NCBI GenBank assembly: GCA_944390685.1
Contig: CALXQL010000016.1
Location: forward strand, 17,408-81,407
Direction of reading: 5' to 3'
Source of the DNA: an uncultured Alphaproteobacteria bacterium
Lineage (GTDB): Bacteria; Pseudomonadota; Alphaproteobacteria; Rs-D84; CACZYB01
Length of the DNA stretch: 64,000 bases
Shown: positions 4,829 through 54,732 of the stretch, one piece after another
Numbering within the stretch: position 1 is the first letter of the stretch
Layout: every line of letters begins with the position of its first letter
Position numbers and translations under genes: made by a program
Notes under the pieces: generated by a model
Told to the model about the DNA's origin: nothing
The model's input: only the letters and a program-made list of their open reading frames with translations
Database searches by the model: none

Positions 4829-5275
4829 ATGAAAACATATTATATAGTATCTGGAGGGTTTGATCCAATACATGAAGGACATGTGGAAAATATACTTGAA
4901 AGTAAAAATAATTCAGATGGTGTTATAGCTCTTGTAAATAGTGATGAATGGCTTTGTCGTAAAAAGGGCAAAAATTTTATGAATTTTCAAACTAGAAGTA
5001 CTGTTGTTGGAGCTATAAAGGGTGTAATTGATGTAATTGCATTTGATGATAGTGATAATTCTGCTTGTGATGGTTTAAGAAAAGTGCGTGAAAAATATCC
5101 AAATGATATATTGGTATTTGCAAAAGGTGGAGACAGAACAGCAGATAATATTCCTGAAATACCTGTATGTAAAGAATTGAATATTGAAATTAAGTATAAT
5201 GTTGGTTTTTCTATTTCTGGACGTCAAAAACCAAACTCATCTTCTTGGATACTTAAAAATTGGGAGTCTAAATAA
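4829..5275 (+). CDS. cytidylyltransferase-fold nucleotidyltransferase (HxGH family; resembles the HldE/RfaE domain II adenylyltransferase)
   Basis: SGGFDPIHEGH nucleotidyltransferase motif; 148 aa. Its stop overlaps the next gene. Confidence 0.5.
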   Translation: MKTYYIVSGGFDPIHEGHVENILESKNNSDGVIALVNSDEWLCRKKGKNFMNFQTRSTVVGAIKGVIDVIAFDDSDNSACDGLRKVREKYPNDILVFAKGGDRTADNIPEIPVCKELNIEIKYNVGFSISGRQKPNSSSWILKNWESK

Positions 5276-5991
5276 TGGCTTTGTATGTTTTTGATATGGA
5301 TGGTACTATAACTCCCCCTAGATTACCTATGGATGTTTCTTTTGCAAAATTATTTTATCCATGGCAATTAAAAAATAAAACTTTTATTGCAACAGGATCT
5401 AATTTCCAAAAAGTTGAAGAACAATTACCTATTAATATTATAAATGCTTTTACTGGAATTTATTATTCTATGGGTAATGCTTATTATTCAAAAGGAAATA
5501 TTGTATATGAAAATAATTTTATTCCAAATGAGGCTTTGATAGAAAAATTAATTAATTATAGGAATAATACTAAATATCCATACACTTTGTTCCCTAATTT
5601 TATAGAACGTAGAATAGGGATGATTAATTTTTCTGTTTTAGGTAGGGATTGTCCTTATGATGAAAGAATAAAATATTATAATTGGGATAATGTTAATAAG
5701 GAAAGAGAAAATATAGTTAATGAACTTCAAAATATTTTCCCTAATTATGATTTTACTATAGGTGGAACTATTTCGATAGATATTACTAATAAAGGTTGTG
5801 GCAAAGGACAGATTGCAGAACGTTTAAGAAATACTTATCCAAATGAAAAAATAATATTTTTTGGAGATAAGACTTTTAAAGGTGGTAATGATTATGAATT
5901 ATCTTTGGCATTATCTTCATTAGATAACACAGAAGTAGTTCAGGTTAATACCCCTGAAGATGTATTAAAATTTTTAGGTATAAAGGAGTAA
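5275..5991 (+). CDS. eukaryotic-type phosphomannomutase (HAD-IIB, PMM family)
   Basis: [11 protein letters not shown] motif I, and a C-terminal [14 protein letters not shown] block that is characteristic of the PMM1/PMM2 family. Confidence 0.6.
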
Positions 5992-8335: not shown

Positions 8336-9451
8336 ATGATAAATTTAGAACATATACCTGTTTTTTATGAAGGACAAGATGATTTAATTGAAATATTAGC
8401 TACATCTATGGCTAGTGTTTGTTATAATACTAAATCATTTATTGATTTTTATATATTAGATTGTGGAATTTGTGATTTTAATAAAAAACAGTTGGAAACA
8501 TTGAAAGATAAATTTAATAATTTTTCTATTGAATATATTCCAGTTGATTTAAAAAAATTTGAAGGATTAAAAGGATGGGGAAGTGGTAATTATTTAGATT
8601 GTTACTCTAGATTATTAATACCGGATTTAAAAACGAATTTAGATAAAGTTATTTATTTAGATACAGATGTTATAGCATTAGGTGATATAAAAGATTTATA
8701 TGATATTAATTTAGGTGAGTATATTTATGGTGCTGTTCCTGATATAGGTTATGATAAATATTTTCAACAGAATTGTGTTAATAATTTAGGATTAAGTAAA
8801 AAACATATTTATCCAAATGCAGGAGTGCTTTTATTAGATACAAAAAAATGTCGTTCAATTGGCTTTACAGAGAAGATTCTTGAATTAGCTAAAGAAAAAA
8901 AAGATTATATTTTAGTTATTGTTGAAGATTTATTTAGTATGTTTTTTGGGGATAATAATTATAAAATACTAGATAATCGTTTTAATATGACAGATAGAGA
9001 TAATAAAATTAGAGAAATATGTGCACCTAATATTACAAAAGAGTATTTAGATAATGAATGGAAACATGTAGTTATACAACATTTATCTCCAGGAAAAGTT
9101 TGGAAATCTATAAAAAATAATTATAATAATAGAATATTAAAGATGTTTCATTCGTTTTGGTTTTTTGCTAAAATGACTCCTTTTTATGAAGGAATGCAAC
9201 AATCTTTTTTATTTCAAACAAATGAATTAATTGTTTGTAATAATTTAAATTATATATTATCATATTTTAGAAATCCTTTATGGTCTTCAATAAAACTATT
9301 TAATTTTATTACGATATTAAAAGTAAGAAGAAATAAAAATAAAATAATGTATTTTTTATTTAATTTTATTCCATTATTAAAAATAAAGAATAAATTAAAT
9401 AAAACTAAAATATATTTATTTGGATTTATACCTTTGTTAAAAATTAAGTAA
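8336..9451 (+). CDS. glycosyltransferase family 8 (LPS glucosyl/galactosyltransferase-like, WaaJ/RfaJ type) with a C-terminal repeat tail
   Basis: GT8 motifs YLDTDVIALGDI (DxD) and HLSPGK. The C-terminus carries three degenerate LFNFIPLLKIK repeats. Confidence 0.7.
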   Translation: MINLEHIPVFYEGQDDLIEILATSMASVCYNTKSFIDFYILDCGICDFNKKQLETLKDKFNNFSIEYIPVDLKKFEGLKGWGSGNYLDCYSRLLIPDLKTNLDKVIYLDTDVIALGDIKDLYDINLGEYIYGAVPDIGYDKYFQQNCVNNLGLSKKHIYPNAGVLLLDTKKCRSIGFTEKILELAKEKKDYILVIVEDLFSMFFGDNNYKILDNRFNMTDRDNKIREICAPNITKEYLDNEWKHVVIQHLSPGKVWKSIKNNYNNRILKMFHSFWFFAKMTPFYEGMQQSFLFQTNELIVCNNLNYILSYFRNPLWSSIKLFNFITILKVRRNKNKIMYFLFNFIPLLKIKNKLNKTKIYLFGFIPLLKIK

Positions 9452-9466
9452 TGTAAGGAATATTAT

Positions 9467-10510
9467 ATGAATAATAAGTATCAAAAACATATACCAGTTT
9501 TTTATGAAGGCCAAGATGATTTAATAGGTGTTTTAGCTACATCAATAGCTAGTGTTTGTGATAATACGGATGCATTTATAGATTTTTATATTTTAGATTG
9601 TGGAATATCTAAGATAAATAAAAAATTATTAAATAATTTGAAAAATAAATTTGATAATTTATCTATAGAATATATTTATATTGATTTATCTCAATTTAAA
9701 AATTTAACACCTTGGAGAGGAAAATTTTGGGATTGTTATGCAAGATTATTAATACCTGATTTAAAACCAAATTTAAATAAAGCAATTTATTTAGATAGTG
9801 ATGTTATATTACTAGATGATATTGAAAAATTATGGAATGAAAATTTAGATCAATATATTTTTGCTGCTGTTCCTGATATAGGTTATGTTTCTTTTGTTAA
9901 ATATAATGCTATTCATAATTTAGGGATTTCAAAAAATCATATTTATCCTAATGCGGGTGTTTTGTTAATTGATTGTAAAAAATGGAGAAAAAATAATATT
10001 ACAAAAATATTATTTGATATTGCTTATCAATATAGAAAACATATTTATATAATTTGTGAAGATATTTTAAGTATTGCCTTTAATAATAATAATTATAAAG
10101 TTTTAGATAATAGATATAATTTAGCAGATAGAGTTAATGAAATAGTTGATTTATATGATGGTAAGATTTCTAATGACTATATAAATCAAGAGTGGTTAAA
10201 TGGAGTTATACAACATCTTTCTCCGGGTAAACCTTGGAAAATGTTAAAAAATGATTATAATGGTAATACTTTAAAATATTTTAATTTATTTTGGTATTAT
10301 GCTAAAATGACAGAGTTTTATATAGGAATGAAGTGTTCTTTTGATGATTATTTAATTAAAAATATAGATATTAAAAAATCTATAAAAAAGTATAAGTTAT
10401 TTGGTATAATTCCATTTTTAGTTTGTAAAACAAATGGTAGAAAATCTATTATAAAATTATTTAATTTAATTACTATTTTAAAAATAAAAAGGAAAAATAA
10501 TGATATATGA
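9467..10510 (+). CDS. glycosyltransferase family 8 paralog (tandem duplicate of the gene at 8336..9451)
   Basis: The same GT8 motifs (YLDSDVILLDDI, HLSPGKPWK) and the same opening IPVFYEGQDDLI. Confidence 0.7.
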   Translation: MNNKYQKHIPVFYEGQDDLIGVLATSIASVCDNTDAFIDFYILDCGISKINKKLLNNLKNKFDNLSIEYIYIDLSQFKNLTPWRGKFWDCYARLLIPDLKPNLNKAIYLDSDVILLDDIEKLWNENLDQYIFAAVPDIGYVSFVKYNAIHNLGISKNHIYPNAGVLLIDCKKWRKNNITKILFDIAYQYRKHIYIICEDILSIAFNNNNYKVLDNRYNLADRVNEIVDLYDGKISNDYINQEWLNGVIQHLSPGKPWKMLKNDYNGNTLKYFNLFWYYAKMTEFYIGMKCSFDDYLIKNIDIKKSIKKYKLFGIIPFLVCKTNGRKSIIKLFNLITILKIKRKNNDI

Positions 10511-48691: not shown

Positions 48692-49154
48692 TTAATGAGA
48701 GTTTTCACTTACTGAATGTAATAAGTAGTTAACATCTATGTTTTCCCTATCTATGAGATTTTGAAGATGTTGTTCATCAAGGATATTATTTTTATAAATT
48801 TGAACTGATGTTAAACCTGTATTACATACAAGTGCAGATTTTATGCCGTAATTATTAGCACCTTTTATATCATTTTTTATAGAATCACCAATCATTAAAA
48901 TCCTATCTTTTGGATAAGGTAAATCACTTAGTGCATTTTCAAAAGTTATTTTTAATGGTTTACCAAATTCAACTATTTCTAAACCTGCTTTGTAAGGGGG
49001 TTCAGTAAATAATTCTTTATATATTTTTTTGTCAATATTTATTACTTCTTTTATTATTGCATTTTGATTTTTTGAATATATACTTTTAGAGATTAGGAAT
49101 TGAGAGAGAAAATGAAATTTTTTAAATACTTTTATATATTTTTCTTTATTTGTT
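48692..49154 (-). pseudogene. C-terminal fragment of a HAD-IA hydrolase with no N-terminal catalytic half. The track gives only 48692..48895; the frame stays open upstream to 49154 and overlaps the start of the outer-membrane-protein gene.
   Basis: By hand translation, ...EFGKPLKITFENALSDLPYPKDRILMIGDSIKNDIKGANNYGI matches the HAD motif III region. There is no DxD motif and no ATG upstream. Confidence 0.4.
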
Positions 49155-50491
49155 TTTCAAGTAATCTTGTTTATGCAAGTGATAGTAAAAATCAAGGAGA
49201 TAATTCCGTCGTTGTTGCAAAAGATGGGGTTATATCCTTAACACCTGTGCAGATTATAAATCTTTCTAAAAAATTTATTGAAGATAAGAATTTTCATGAT
49301 GCTAAAATGCTTTTATTAAAAAGTTCATTTAATGTTTTGGAATTGGAAATTGAAAGACTTCATTTATTGGCTCAAATCGCTATTTTAGAAGATAATATTG
49401 ATACGGCAATTGATATTTATAGATTTATTCTTGATTATCAGCCAAATATTTCTTCCATTAGATTTAAACTGGCTCAACTTTATATGCTTAAAAAATCTTG
49501 GTATAAAGCGGATTATCATTTTCGTTTGGCTGCAACTGATAAAGGTTTACCAGATGAAGTGAAAATGGAAATTGCAAAGGCTTTGTTTATTACAAGACAA
49601 AATAAAAATTGGAATATATGGTTTAATATTGGTGCGGCTCCGGATAATAACATAAATAATGCTCAATCAGGTGAGCAGTGTATTGCAACAATTTTTGGGG
49701 TTTTATGTAATCAACTTCCTTATCCTGAAAAAGCTATTGGCTTTAATACTTCATTTGGTGGAAATTATGAATTCATTTTAAATGATAATTGGAGAATTAG
49801 AAATGAGTTAGTTGTGTCTAATTCCATGTATGATAAAAATGAATATGATGATTTATATATTGGATATAATATAGGTCCAAAATATGTTTTTAGAAAAGGT
49901 GAAGTTGCTTCTTATTTAACAACATATAGAAGATGGTTAGATCATTCTCCTTATAGTTATAGTGTTGGTGTAAGAGTTGATGCAAATTATGATTTAACAA
50001 ATAGATTGAGTGTTGGAGCAGGGCTTCGTTTTTCACCAACTTTTTATGATGATTATGGAGATTATCTTGATGGAAATGTCAGTGGTATTGATAGTAGATT
50101 AGTTTATTCTTTTGATGCTTCTAAATATATTATTTTTAGAAATTATTATGAAATGGAAAAAACTGAAGATCCAATTTATTCTAATAATAGATTCTTTTTA
50201 TCTTTGGGCTTTGGTATTGAACTTCCTTATGGATTCTTTGTTTATTTGGAACCTTCTGTTTTATTTACAGATTATAAGGAAGAAAGACCATTCATCAAAG
50301 ATTTATCTTTTGAAAATATTAAGGAAGAGGATATTACAAGAAAGTATATGATTTCTTTTTCAAATAGAAAAATTAAATTTTGGGGATTTACTCCGACATT
50401 TTCTTATACCTATACAAATAAAAGTTCAAATGTTTGGCAAAGAGAATATAAGAAATCCGCTTTTGAATTTACTATTAATCAAAGATTTTAG
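49112..50491 (+). CDS. outer-membrane protein with an N-terminal TPR-like helical domain and a C-terminal beta-barrel ending in Phe; the architecture is Slam/DUF560-like (surface lipoprotein assembly modulator)
   Basis: Signal peptide (FFICFSSNLVYA), helical TPR-like repeats (residues ~60-150), then an aromatic/Gly-rich region of alternating beta-strand pattern, and a terminal ...EFTINQRF. The start was taken at the second Met. Confidence 0.5.
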   Translation: MKFFKYFYIFFFICFSSNLVYASDSKNQGDNSVVVAKDGVISLTPVQIINLSKKFIEDKNFHDAKMLLLKSSFNVLELEIERLHLLAQIAILEDNIDTAIDIYRFILDYQPNISSIRFKLAQLYMLKKSWYKADYHFRLAATDKGLPDEVKMEIAKALFITRQNKNWNIWFNIGAAPDNNINNAQSGEQCIATIFGVLCNQLPYPEKAIGFNTSFGGNYEFILNDNWRIRNELVVSNSMYDKNEYDDLYIGYNIGPKYVFRKGEVASYLTTYRRWLDHSPYSYSVGVRVDANYDLTNRLSVGAGLRFSPTFYDDYGDYLDGNVSGIDSRLVYSFDASKYIIFRNYYEMEKTEDPIYSNNRFFLSLGFGIELPYGFFVYLEPSVLFTDYKEERPFIKDLSFENIKEEDITRKYMISFSNRKIKFWGFTPTFSYTYTNKSSNVWQREYKKSAFEFTINQRF

Positions 50492-50504
50492 TTAGTTTTG
50501 GATA

Positions 50505-50702
50505 TAAAAAATCACTTAAAAAGTGGTCATCTTTAAAAGTGTTAGATATTTTTTCTATCAAAGTATAAATATATAATATCACGATTCGTGGATTTTTGCA
50601 AGTAAGAAAATATTCTTTTTATTATTGAATGAAGGTTAAAAATATGATATAATTCCTTTTGTAATGATATTGAAATAACCAAAACAAAAGGAGGAAAAAT
50701 AA
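50505..50702 (+). promoter_or_regulatory. conserved lipoprotein-family upstream element, copy C
   Basis: Near-identical to copies A, B and F. Confidence 0.7.
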
Positions 50703-51678
50703 ATGAGAAAAACAATATCACAGATAAGTCTAATAACAATGTTATCATTATTAAGTGCATGTGGTGGAGGAAATCTAGCTGAAAACTTGCCAAATCTACC
50801 GGGGGGGAACAGAAATAGAACCTAAACCAGAACCTAAACCAGAACCGGAAGAATTAACATTTGATAAAATATTCCCTAATAAAGATGCACTTGCCGGTAT
50901 GGTGGGAGGAGACGGAGAGCCAGCTTTTTCTATAAAAGATGCAGAAGGTGACCAACCTGAAAAATTAGTGTTTAAAAATCTACCAGAGTGGGAATTCCCC
51001 ATAACAAGTTTTGAAGATAAAAGTGATTTTTATTATGCATATATAGAATCTGATACAAAATCTGATGATGAAAATTATTATAAAACTTATTATAATTTAG
51101 TATTACCTAAAGATGTTAATATTTCTTATGGAAGTTTCTTTCTTGTAGGTTCTGGACAATTTGATTCTGAAACTAATAATGGTGTGAATGGATATAGATT
51201 TTCTCCAAGTTTTCAATATGATCCATCAAAAAAAATTGATGTTGCAACTTTTGAAAATGATATGACTTTTAAGGGTAATTCCATTTTAGGAATAACATCA
51301 ATTTATGGAAATTCAAAAGAAGATTATGCAATATTAAATGGTGATGCAAATTTAACATTGAGTAAAGATGGTTCAATTAATGCTAAAATAGAATTTGATG
51401 ATTTTTATACAATTAACTTTAATAATAATAGTGATGATAATTTTATCACATTAACTGATAAAAATAAGATTTCAGATAATATAAAGAAAGTTATTGGAGA
51501 GATAGAATTTGATGGAAAAAATGAAGTAAAAGTAGATAAATTACGTTATGATTCTTATGTCATATTAGGAAGTGATAATAAAATTCCAGAAGAAATTTTA
51601 GGGACCTATGGTTTTTCATGGGGTAATGAAGAAAAAGGTTATTACGCCACTGGATCCTATGGTGTAAAAAAACAATAA
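50703..51678 (+). CDS. surface-lipoprotein family member 3, phase-variable. It is out of frame at a G7 tract: the signal-peptide ORF from 50703 stops at 50822 and the mature domain resumes in the +1 frame (track ORF 50899..51678).
   Basis: The lipobox MRKTISQISLITMLSLLSACGGG is followed by G7 at 50801-50807. Removing one G fuses it to the ORF 50899..51678, which carries the family motifs (FDDFYTINF, KISDNIKKVI, PEEILG, YGVKKQ). Confidence 0.65.
50801..50807 (+). repeat. homopolymeric G7 tract (phase-variation switch) in the lipoprotein gene
   Basis: Counted directly from the sequence. Confidence 0.85.
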
Positions 51679-51705
51679 ATGTTTATTTTTTATCATTTTT
51701 TAAAT

Positions 51706-51728
51706 CCCGCCGTTGTGCGGGAATTTTT
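51706..51728 (+). terminator. rho-independent terminator (CCCGC-CGTTGT-GCGGG-AATTTTT), identical to the one at 16988
   Basis: Identical hairpin sequence. Confidence 0.65.
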
Positions 51729-51732
51729 ATAT

Positions 51733-51779
51733 AAAAAATCACTTAAAAAGTGGTCATCTTTAAAAGTGTTGTTTTATTT
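51733..51779 (+). promoter_or_regulatory. orphan partial copy D of the lipoprotein upstream element (operator palindrome only), abutting tRNA-Ser
   Basis: AAAAAATCACTTAAAAAGTGGTCATCTTTAAAAGTG is identical to the 5' end of the element; the rest is absent. Confidence 0.6.
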
Positions 51780-51784
51780 TTTAC

Positions 51785-51874
51785 TGGCGGATGGGGAGGG
51801 ATTCGAACCCCCGGTGGAGTTGCCCCCACAACGGTTTTCAAGACCGCCGCATTCGACCACTCTGCCACCCATCC
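51785..51874 (-). tRNA. tRNA-Ser (anticodon TGA), long variable arm
   Basis: The reverse complement reads GGATGGG...GCGGT-CTTGAAA-ACCGT..., with a long extra arm, GGTTCGAATCC T-arm and CCA. Confidence 0.85.
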
Positions 51875-52969: not shown

Positions 52970-53557
52970 ATGTTTGATGAATTAGAAAATATTAGGCTTA
53001 AATGTCTTGGATGTCAAAAATGCCAATTATGTAAATCAAGAAATAATATTGTTTTTTCTGATGGTGTTCCCAATAGTAATATTGTATTGATTGGGGAGGC
53101 TCCTGGATTTTATGAAGATCAAGAAGGAAAACCTTTTGTCGGTAGATCCGGACAATTATTGGATAAAATTTTTGAATCAGTTGGTTTATCAAGGCAAAAT
53201 GATATTTATATTTGTAATACCATTAAATGTAGACCTCCGGAAAATAGAAATCCTTTGCCGGAAGAAAAAGATGCTTGTCGTGAATATTTAGATGCTCAAT
53301 TGAATATATTGAAACCTAAAATAATATTGCTTTGTGGAGCAGTGGCGGTGCAATCTTTACTTCCCGATTTAAAATTAGGTATCACAAAAATAAGGGGACA
53401 ATGGTTTGATGGACCTTTTGGTGCCAAAATGATGCCTATATTTCATCCATCTTATTTATTAAGAAATCCTTCAAAGGAAGTTGGTAAACCAAAATGGTTA
53501 ATGTGGCAAGATATGAAGGAAATTAAAAAACTTTATGATGAAATAAAAAATAAATAA
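52970..53557 (+). CDS. uracil-DNA glycosylase, family 4 (Fe-S type)
   Basis: Cys cluster CxxCxxC..., GEAPG motif and HPS motif (IFHPSYLLRNP). Confidence 0.75.
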   Translation: MFDELENIRLKCLGCQKCQLCKSRNNIVFSDGVPNSNIVLIGEAPGFYEDQEGKPFVGRSGQLLDKIFESVGLSRQNDIYICNTIKCRPPENRNPLPEEKDACREYLDAQLNILKPKIILLCGAVAVQSLLPDLKLGITKIRGQWFDGPFGAKMMPIFHPSYLLRNPSKEVGKPKWLMWQDMKEIKKLYDEIKNK

Positions 53558-53562
53558 TCCCT

Positions 53563-53660
53563 ATTGCAAAACTTTGCGAATCATGATATTATATATTTAT
53601 ACTTTGATAGAAAAAATATCTAACACTTTTAAAGATGACCACTTTTTAAGTGATTTTTTA
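53563..53660 (-). promoter_or_regulatory. orphan partial copy E of the lipoprotein upstream element (reverse orientation), lying 3' of lipoprotein gene 4 with no gene of its own
   Basis: Its reverse complement matches the copy-B variant (...CACGATTCGCAAAGTTTTGCAATAGGG). Confidence 0.6.
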
Positions 53661-53666
53661 TTAGAT

Positions 53667-54557
53667 TTAATTTTGAAAATTATTTATTTTTTTTACACCA
53701 TAAATTCCATCAATAAAAGTTTTTTTATCATTATTTTCTATATTAAATGTAAAATTACCAACAACTTCTTCAGGATTTTTGTTTTCACCTAAAATATTGA
53801 ATTGATGATTTTTTAATTTTGTTTTATAATTATCGTGAACTAATGCTAAATTATCATAAAAATCTTTTGGAATTTTATTGTTATTAAATAATGTGATTTC
53901 ATTTTCTTTTATATTTACAGAATAAAAATTATCAAAATTCATTGTTAAATTGTATTGTTCGTTTGGATATAAAATTAAATTAGCATTTCCTGTAATAGTT
54001 TCATCATGATTATTAATATTAACATTATTTTTACTAATAGAGAAAAAATTAAGAAGTACTTTACCATTAAAATTGATTGTTTCATCTATTTTATTTATAA
54101 TAGTATCATTATTAATAGTTAGTAATGGGTAAAAAATTACTTGATTATATCCATTTGAAGTATATCCCAGTAAAGCTATATTTCCATAAGATAAATCTAA
54201 ATCCTTTATAAAACTAATACTTGCTTCACCATATTCAACCGAGTTAACAGCTTTATAATAATTATCTTTATTTTCAAAACTAGATAATGGAAATGAATAT
54301 AAATCTGGATTTATGGAAACTGATAAAGTTTCTTCCCCATCAACTTCATTTAAATTCATTGTAAAATTATCTAATGTAGAAAAAGAGGAAATTTCCTCTT
54401 TATTATAAAAAATATCTTGGAATTCCAATTCATCTTTGTTTTGTGATATATCATTATTGCTTATTTCAAATTTTGATAAATTAGGTAGGTTTGATCCACC
54501 ATTTCCACTACAAGATGCAAGTAATAAGTATAATACTAAATATAAATTATTTTTCAT
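53667..54557 (-). CDS. surface-lipoprotein family member 4 (lipobox LLASC)
   Basis: Signal peptide plus Cys and the family motifs (YNLTMNFDNFYSVN, NPEEVVG, IYGVKK). Confidence 0.7.
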   Translation of the reverse strand: MKNNLYLVLYLLLASCSGNGGSNLPNLSKFEISNNDISQNKDELEFQDIFYNKEEISSFSTLDNFTMNLNEVDGEETLSVSINPDLYSFPLSSFENKDNYYKAVNSVEYGEASISFIKDLDLSYGNIALLGYTSNGYNQVIFYPLLTINNDTIINKIDETINFNGKVLLNFFSISKNNVNINNHDETITGNANLILYPNEQYNLTMNFDNFYSVNIKENEITLFNNNKIPKDFYDNLALVHDNYKTKLKNHQFNILGENKNPEEVVGNFTFNIENNDKKTFIDGIYGVKKINNFQN

Positions 54558-54732
54558 AAATAAATTCCATAAATTATCATTATTATATCATATTTTTAAC
54601 CTTCATTCAATAATAAAAAGAATATTTTCTTACTTGCAAAAATCCACGAATCGTGATATTATATATTTATACTTTGATAGAATTTATATCTAACACTTTT
54701 AAAGATGACCACTTTTTAAGTGATTTTTTATT
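54558..54732 (-). promoter_or_regulatory. conserved lipoprotein-family upstream element, copy F (reverse orientation), in the divergent intergenic region shared with the RND efflux operon
   Basis: Its reverse complement is near-identical to copy C through ...GAAGGTTAAAAATATGATATAAT. Confidence 0.7.

Follow-up and report, generated by a model that had tools for sequence, protein, structure and literature searches.

What is the 150- to 200-bp repeat that stands in front of the lipoprotein genes in this 64,000-nt stretch (hereafter the window) of an uncultured low-GC alphaproteobacterium, and what does the perfect 13-nt dyad within it, CACTTAAAAAGTG, do? The original prediction took the dyad for a repressor or activator operator through which the whole lipoprotein family is co-regulated. 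Our analysis suggests that the dyad is probably not an on/off operator of the lipoprotein genes. The reading that we favor, tentatively, is that the repeat is a shared, modular, recombining promoter region of cassettes for TbpB-like surface lipoproteins of the Slam (surface lipoprotein assembly modulator) type, in which the dyad is part of an antisense hairpin rather than an operator. For the 40-nt core that holds the dyad, a hairpin or stop on the antisense strand, or another autonomous site, is more likely than an operator of the lipoprotein promoters.

The extents of the repeat were set by repeat finding and alignment, which recovered the six copies at the places originally named. The copies and the tRNA gene beside one of them are given below in window coordinates.

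50504-50702, plus strand: copy c3, made up of the 40-nt core, the remaining part of module A, module B, and a long 5' untranslated region (UTR); it ends at the ATG of lipoprotein gene 3
15841-16014, plus strand: copy c1, 5' of lipoprotein gene 1 (16015-16980), with the promoter-like site P2 at 15963-15991
17011-17214, plus strand: copy c2, between gene 1 and lipoprotein gene 2 (17215-18214), with P2 at 17137-17165 (11/12 matches plus TG)
51731-51770, plus strand: copy c4, the 40-nt core alone, past the terminator of gene 3 and 14 nt from the 3' end of tRNA-Ser
51785-51874, minus strand: tRNA-Ser
53542-53662, minus strand: copy c5, an orphan module A of ~120 nt with the core and the antisense promoter-like site Pas, lacking module B, where lipoprotein gene 4 and the UDG gene face each other with their 3' ends
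54558-54731, minus strand: copy c6, 5' of lipoprotein gene 4 (54557-53667)

The dyad occurs exactly six times in the window, at 15850, 17022, 50513, and 51740 on the plus strand and at 53640 and 54710 on the minus strand, against 0.16 occurrences expected from shuffled sequences, and this repetition is significant. The copies c1, c2, c3, and c6 run up to the start codons of the four lipoprotein genes, as had been proposed for the repeat as a whole, whereas c4 and c5 are orphans with no gene behind them. A search allowing two mismatches found no diverged copy of the dyad above background in the window, and no further copy of the core was present in ~105 kb of the host organism's DNA. Extending the window by way of its flanking proteins led only to short contigs without extra copies, and the pattern CACTTAAAAAGTG-N7-TTTAAAAGTG had no match in species-representative genomes or Joint Genome Institute (JGI) metagenomes.

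When the copies of the window are aligned with those of three other assemblies (18 copies in all), two modules emerge. Module A (~100 bp) has the core at its outer edge, followed by ~60 nt that hold ATATAATATCA...TTGCAA, and module B (~55 bp) consists of TTGATA or TTGAAT, 17 bp, and TGnTATAAT or TATTAT. Three different 5' UTRs follow module B, one per copy. The sites on which the following argument turns are these.

50504-50543, no strand assigned: the invariant core, ATAAAAAATCACTTAAAAAGTGGTCATCTTTAAAAGTGTT, which holds the 13-nt dyad (50513-50525) and a 29-nt imperfect palindrome (50513-50541)
50573-50601, minus strand: Pas, the antisense promoter-like site, TTGCAA-17-TGaTATTAT
50625-50653, plus strand: P2, the promoter-like site of module B, TTGAAT-17-TGaTATAAT with an extended -10, 49 nt 5' of the ATG

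The core is set apart from everything around it by its conservation, which is that seen within one species, among strains more than 99% identical in their housekeeping genes. None of its 40 alignment columns varies, compared with 17 of 63 in the remaining part of module A (Fisher p = 1.8e-4), and it is the unique minimum among 137 sliding windows. The core, and with it the dyad in the orthologous loci, is unchanged in 15 of 16 copies, whereas the rest of the repeat is a mosaic of recombining alleles. Its outer boundary is sharp, and its extent matches that of the independently truncated c4, which is a 40-nt stub in three strains, 14 nt past tRNA-Ser. Judged from these alignments, the core is a discrete, constrained unit, because it has no variable columns and the same extent as the c4 stub.

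A recombining mosaic such as this could also carry a conserved block that does nothing. The 40-nt unit would then simply be the margin of a promoter region that was duplicated recently, with gene conversion keeping it identical, and the orphans would be scars of unequal recombination. The mosaic character of the element and the cassette insertions and deletions that lie between repeat copies agree with this, as does the close identity of the strains, given which little time has elapsed. We nevertheless consider it unlikely. The edge of a block of homology should be its least homogenized part, yet here it is the only invariant 40-nt window; every other block has two or three alleles among paralogs whose bodies are 26 to 31% identical, and the invariant block shares its boundaries with the independent c4 truncation.

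The modules also behave as units when strains are compared. Strain 2 is represented by a 365-kb scaffold (loci L001 and L087) whose housekeeping genes are 99.3 to 99.7% identical to those of the window. It carries an extra cassette (geneA) after c1, and its gene 1 ortholog is then preceded by a strong terminator and, directly past it, by module B as the only element module present, with no dyad. The gene 4 cassette is missing from strain 2, where a solo module A stands between the UDG gene and the MFP gene; its left junction is that of c5 and its right junction that of c6. Moreover, the body of gene 2 is a different allele in strain 2 (75% identity over part of its length). The cassette differences lie at 8909-9848 and 9916-10000 of L001, at 12650-12837 of L087, and at 53542-54731 of the window. 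Orthologous elements are 89 to 97.5% identical between the strains and differ by block alleles that are common to the paralogs, and two blocks only 40 nt apart are found in all four allele combinations. Because block alleles are shared in all combinations, the element is, as far as its sequence tells, a recombining mosaic whose cassettes are gained and lost by recombination between copies. The junctions of the geneA insertion lie in module B and not in the core, and the gene 4 insertion or deletion falls between two copies of module A.

These polymorphisms bear on a further explanation, in which a site-specific recombinase encoded elsewhere would use the 29-nt imperfect palindrome (11-7-11) as its core site to excise and integrate cassettes flanked by direct repeats. 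Three of the four genes are indeed flanked by directly repeated cores, a single site is left where strain 2 lacks the gene 4 cassette, and c4, beside a tRNA gene, coincides exactly with the 40-nt unit; the spacer of the palindrome is invariant. However, neither the 28 open reading frames (ORFs) of the window that were scanned nor the precomputed Pfam annotations listed for the called genes of L001 and L087 contained a recombinase or transposase domain, and the geneA junctions avoid the core. Palindromes with 11-bp arms and up to two mismatches arise by chance at 1.26 per 200 nt, the site bears no resemblance to dif on reading, and ordinary homologous recombination explains all the polymorphisms. 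We regard a recombinase core site as very unlikely. Its extended form is similarly improbable: the 40-nt unit (11-7-11 plus an A-tract) would be a dedicated recombination site at which an unlinked recombinase moves promoter-plus-gene cassettes between a few docking sites. That these docking sites would lie behind Slam and tRNA-Ser, behind merR, and between the UDG gene and the efflux operon is a conjecture to which we give the same small chance. If true, the Slam-type surface antigens of an uncultured alphaproteobacterium would have a cassette system of their own on the chromosome.

Returning to the reading that we favor, the promoter of the lipoprotein genes would most likely be the extended -10, sigma-70-type site of module B. 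P2 combines hexamers spaced at 17 bp with the TG of an extended -10; it has 10 to 11 of 12 matches plus TG in all four gene-proximal copies and is the top site in 20 kb. In each case, it lies 23 to 50 nt 5' of the ATG, upstream of a Shine-Dalgarno sequence. The TATAAT to which the original prediction pointed is present (P1, 50572-50577), 47 nt downstream of the dyad, but it does not stand up as the promoter of the gene. It has no conserved -35, its putative -35 region being the most variable block of the element, and P2 scores better further downstream.

Module A is best read on the opposite strand, as a putative promoter, TTGCAA-17-TGnTATTAT, followed after ~25 nt by the 29-nt hairpin that contains the dyad and by a U6 run. 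The hexamers and the TG of Pas never vary, and the variable blocks fall in its spacer (TGGAT or CAAAG) and its flank. The pattern TTGCAA-N17-TATWAT was seen seven times with 0.2 expected, five of them in module A; the two independent sites lie exactly 5' of tRNA-Ser (51918-51890) and of a HAD-hydrolase gene (48684-48656). The core stands ~25 nt past the predicted Pas start in every long copy. The element thus resembles a pair of divergent promoters set back to back, and the dyad would fall in the short transcript of the antisense one. The anatomy, the modularity, the differential conservation, and the strain polymorphisms are shown by the sequences; which of these promoters fire, and that the hairpin acts on RNA, we infer.

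Pas of c6 (54634-54662, plus strand) faces an MFP-RND-OMF efflux operon (54812 onward), and the antisense promoter of the solo module A in strain 2 faces the efflux operon as well. In c6 and in the solo copy (L087 12659-12687), Pas is the promoter-like site nearest the efflux operon on its upstream side. The core hairpin and U-run would then fall in a leader of ~145 nt and could be an attenuator of that operon.

At the RNA level, the 40-nt unit would act as a weak stop or a leader hairpin for transcription running opposite to the lipoprotein genes. This opposing transcription would come from the divergent promoter in the long copies, from tRNA-Ser at c4, and from the UDG gene at c5 and the solo copy. 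The repeats also flank the cassettes as direct repeats, and recombination within them leads to the gain, loss, and reshuffling of cassettes. The structure of the core is in keeping with such a role in several respects. Its larger symmetry, CACTTAAAAAG / TGGTCAT / CTTTAAAAGTG, spans 29 nt with 9 of 11 positions complementary, and on the minus strand the core reads as 2 nt, the 29-nt hairpin (-5.2 kcal/mol), and then AUUUUUUAU, a U-run. As in an intrinsic terminator, the hairpin is directly followed by the U-run and stands at the end of a same-strand transcription unit, although the stability of its stem falls short. The core lies 14 nt past tRNA-Ser and ~100 nt past the UDG stop codon, in the latter case with no other terminator between. 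The sole variant copy, c4 of strain 2, has AAGTG changed to AAGAG and GTGTT to GTGAT; these changes disrupt the small dyad but leave the 29-nt stem intact, as they affect only the loop and a flanking base.

Several observations weigh against this reading. The core hairpin is weak, with -5.2 compared with -9.7 and -15.1 kcal/mol for the terminators that these genes evidently have, and sites that pair a hairpin of -4 to -6 kcal/mol with a T-run are frequent by chance in the DNA of the window. Scans with promoter consensus sequences barely discriminate here (39 seen against 37 expected, and 153 against 142), and the antisense promoter in c1 to c3 has no gene to serve. The invariance of all 40 nt, including the loop and the internal loop, exceeds what a terminator needs and would be more in keeping with a protein site or an RNA seed. 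Finally, the comparison covers only three to four near-identical strains, from metagenome assemblies that break at these repeats, so that the conservation is shallow and some of the mosaicism possibly an artefact of assembly. The identification of the core as a terminator from energy statistics alone was also tried and discarded, given that weak hairpins with T-runs are too abundant to single the core out.

The promoter-to-hairpin layout of module A could likewise describe a multicopy small-RNA gene, transcribed from Pas over ~60 nt to the hairpin and U-run and regulating the lipoproteins or other surface functions, either in trans or as a cis-antisense RNA. Such a gene would account for the compact layout with sharp boundaries, for the stand-alone unit in strain 2, and for a variable 5' part joined to 40 invariant nucleotides at the 3' end. 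We consider it improbable, as the hairpin is weak and Rfam gave only tRNAs at gathering thresholds and nothing but noise at E < 10 in the element. As duplex targets, the translation-initiation regions of the lipoprotein genes rank 21, 45, 52, and 54 of 55, and the energy of the best target (-26.5 kcal/mol) was equalled by 25 of 300 shuffles. That best target is the start region (5230-5290) of a phosphomannomutase-like gene (5275-5991), and it contains a core-like ATACTTAAAAATTGGGAGTC.

This leaves the operator itself, in which the dyad or the 40-nt unit with its three AAGTG motifs would be a transcription-factor site that represses or activates all the lipoprotein promoters together. The invariance of the core extends to positions unpaired in any hairpin, the dyad symmetry is accompanied by a 13-bp direct repeat, CTTAAAAAGTGGT / CTTTAAAAGTGTT (by reading), and the unit lies 5' of all four lipoprotein genes in the window. 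Moreover, Operator 2 of Borrelia erp offers a precedent (PMC2938228). The position of the dyad argues otherwise: its center is placed ~141 bp 5' of the predicted P2 start, rather than adjacent to the promoter, and P1, to which it is closer, lacks a conserved -35. Nor is the dyad confined to the upstream side of every co-regulated gene, since it is missing at gene 1 of strain 2 and present, as orphan or solo copies behind tRNA-Ser and the UDG gene, where no lipoprotein gene follows. No other copy in the ~105 kb of host DNA hints at a wider regulon.

The symmetry of the dyad carries little weight by itself. Perfect 5-3-5 palindromes number 157 in the window (28% GC), or 0.5 per 200 nt, and palindromes with spacers of 0 to 10 reach 5.2 per 200 nt; because palindromes of such size are common in DNA of 28% GC, the symmetry is not beyond chance. 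The overlapping 'second near-dyad', GTCATCTTTAAAAGTG, proved not to be self-complementary, with 3 of 8 pairs on reading. There is no Fur box: the best match in any element was 13/19, well inside a background of 26 sites at 14 and 3 at 15. By reading only, no convincing CtrA (TTAA-N7-TTAA), sigma-54 (GG-N10-GC), or Irr ICE box was found in the element, and the one near-match to an IHF site, TATCAAAGTATAA, was unconvincing.

The MerR-family protein at 15246 had been put forward as a candidate regulator. However, in 57 of 62 alphaproteobacterial loci that have neither Slam nor these lipoproteins, merR likewise comes after ihfA, and its adjacency is uninformative because fabH-ihfA-merR is generic synteny. 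In the host, the order is plsX-fabH-ihfA-merR. The closest FabH in species-representative genomes is only 59% identical and no close species is available, so that the orthologous FabH loci are useful only for this merR synteny.

Taken with the absence of the dyad from the analogous element of the nearest relative, described below, these findings make the operator possible but doubtful. The broader claim of co-regulation fares better in part: a common, conserved 5' region with promoter-like sequence makes shared control plausible, while the dyad as its operator is unsupported. Binding of a protein to the core may still occur, the core being significantly more conserved than the remaining repeat.

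Outside this organism, 375 Slam homologs were found with E < 1e-10, and the nearest that is not the window's own is 65% identical (locus L096). In L096, a 135-nt upstream element (95% identical) and a signal peptide are common to two lipoprotein genes that stand in tandem next to Slam, and a third copy of the element, 65 nt long, lies inverted in front of Slam. The L096 copies are the following.

4612-4746 of L096: element copy
6330-6464 of L096: element copy
7920-7984 of L096: element copy

This element carries face-to-face promoter-like sites, TTGACA-16/17-TAAATT, on both strands and no CACTT/AAGTG dyad. Between the elements of L096 and the window, nhmmer found nothing in either direction, and relaxed blastn stayed at background level. 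A likeness to L096 in ATTCGTG/TATATAAT in the MAFFT alignment was discounted given the null nhmmer and blastn results. The lipoproteins of L096 are larger than those of the window and were missed by the family profile search. On sequence comparison, then, the design of a shared upstream element recurs in L096, and the dyad does not.

The genes served by the repeat are exemplified by the Slam-linked locus around c3, whose features are as follows.

49100-50491, plus strand: Slam gene, immediately 5' of c3 (PF04575, E = 2.8e-30)
50703-51678, plus strand: lipoprotein gene 3, with a lipobox signal peptide, a poly-G tract at 50801-50807 (7 G, out of frame), an EPKP linker, and a TbpB-like body
51704-51730, plus strand: T1, the terminator of gene 3, G+C-rich, TCCCGCCGTTGTGCGGGA plus a T-run

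The four lipoproteins have lipoboxes LSAC, LSGC, and LASC (by reading), and their bodies are 26 to 31% identical to one another. The AlphaFold (AF2) model of the gene 4 product has a predicted local distance difference test (pLDDT) score of 74.5 and a predicted template modeling (pTM) score of 0.75. Its top match in Foldseek was the TbpB C-lobe (E = 4.8e-5), and whole TbpBs, fHbp, and NHBA were matched as well. Because of these matches of the gene 4 model, the four genes are assigned as encoding TbpB-like, Slam-type lipoproteins, for which surface display is predicted; the lipobox, the adjacent Slam gene, and the TbpB-like barrel/handle fold are those of a Slam-dependent lipoprotein. In a profile search, the family comprised 7 clusters of 5.8 billion, all from the few assemblies of this organism, and the profile had no match in metagenomes.

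The original prediction had also given each gene a poly-G switch, and this was borne out for two of the four, namely gene 2 (10 G at 17313-17322) and gene 3 (7 G at 50801-50807), but not for the other two. Six poly-G tracts are known in four assemblies (elsewhere at ~9007-9016 and 11300-11309 of L001, 9870-9879 of L087, and ~259-268 of L089), and all have 7 or 10 G, that is, one G over an in-frame 6 or 9. Every poly-G lipoprotein gene is therefore 'off' in one and the same frame, which is unlikely if frames are random and independent. Selection for the off state, a bias in slippage, and transcriptional or translational frameshifting are possible reasons for the shared frame. Past the poly-G tract lies a linker of short EPKP/ESKP-type repeats encoded by (GAACCTAAACCA)n-like DNA (50813-50860 and 17334-17360 of the window; 9894-9950 of L087). 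Its length varies among paralogs and strains, which makes it a second slippage-prone tract.

At the other end of the cassettes, a 67-nt block comprising TCCCGCCGTTGTGCGGGA of T1 and the core is 100% identical at 16986-17052 and 51704-51770, 34.7 kb apart. It sits 3' of two lipoprotein genes whose protein bodies are only ~29% identical and seems to form a conserved module at the 3' end of the cassettes. Upstream of c1, a 61-codon ORF after merR (15659-15844) has no Pfam match and is 98.9% identical in nucleotide sequence in strain 2; its stop codon overlaps the first bases of the c1 core. Two other repeated features of the window lie apart from the lipoprotein genes. At 12204-12558, a 139-nt unit is repeated in tandem 2.6 times (91% matches). 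The array starts with the final ~16 nt of tRNA-Leu(gag), and a T-arm-like tRNA fragment (GTGGAAGTTCAAGTG...) is present in each unit; it looks like a series of repeated tRNA 3'-end scars. At 8336-10510, a surface-polysaccharide cluster contains two tandem family-8 glycosyltransferase paralogs that are 72 to 78% identical in DNA.

The type of arrangement described here is already known from other bacteria. In Neisseria meningitidis, REP2, or CREN, denotes repeats of ~150 bp 5' of nhba and other genes (PMC9031163, citing Morelle et al. 2003). Like our element, they are intergenic, lie directly 5' of several genes including one for a surface lipoprotein, are thought to confer a common promoter or regulation, and are present or absent 5' of the same gene across strains. 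The two share no sequence relation, and the host here is an uncultured low-GC alphaproteobacterium. Unlike REP2/CREN, the element of the window is tied to one paralogous family and is modular, with an invariant 40-nt hairpin unit that is also found alone.

The erp genes of Borrelia burgdorferi likewise form a multicopy surface-lipoprotein family with conserved 5' non-coding DNA that holds short palindromic motifs, which in erp bind proteins. Operator 2 of this DNA is bound by BpaB, BpuR, and EbfC; it adjoins the transcription start, and its deletion derepresses transcription (PMC2938228). In contrast, ~141 bp separate the dyad here from the likely start, and in several copies it is either dispensable or out of place.

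Slam-dependent surface lipoproteins, including TbpB, LbpB, fHbp, and HpuA, are known from Neisseria, Moraxella, and Pasteurellaceae (reviewed in PMC7857515). The products of the window resemble them in the adjacent Slam gene, the lipobox, the predicted TbpB-lobe-like fold, the C-terminal ...FGAVRK / YGVKKQ motif, and the early homopolymeric G tracts in two genes. They differ in being single-lobe proteins of 260 to 320 amino acids, in 7 clusters from this organism only, with no adjoining TonB-dependent receptor partner and no Fur box, and an alphaproteobacterial host is unusual. The hpuA gene itself undergoes poly-G phase variation.

In Mycoplasma, the vsp, vlp, and vpma lipoprotein families are varied by poly-A promoter spacers or by a dedicated recombinase with a single expression site. 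They share with the present family a conserved 5' non-coding region and signal peptide, highly divergent bodies, tandem cassettes, and frequent recombination. Here, however, every gene comes with a promoter module of its own, and no recombinase was found nearby.

For annotation, the locus illustrates that a perfect palindrome in AT-rich DNA deserves little weight on its own, and that the informative signals are differential conservation, module boundaries, and strain polymorphism. Whether it serves in termination, in protein binding, or in recombination, the 40-nt unit is now a well-defined object. Should the modular reading be right, this uncultured low-GC alphaproteobacterium would vary its surface in three ways: by a constant expression module (promoter, signal peptide, and linker) around hypervariable TbpB-like bodies, by poly-G switching of some of the genes, and by swapping whole cassettes via the flanking repeats. 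It would thus follow the strategy of Neisseria and Mycoplasma in a lineage whose Slam-type lipoproteins have barely been studied.

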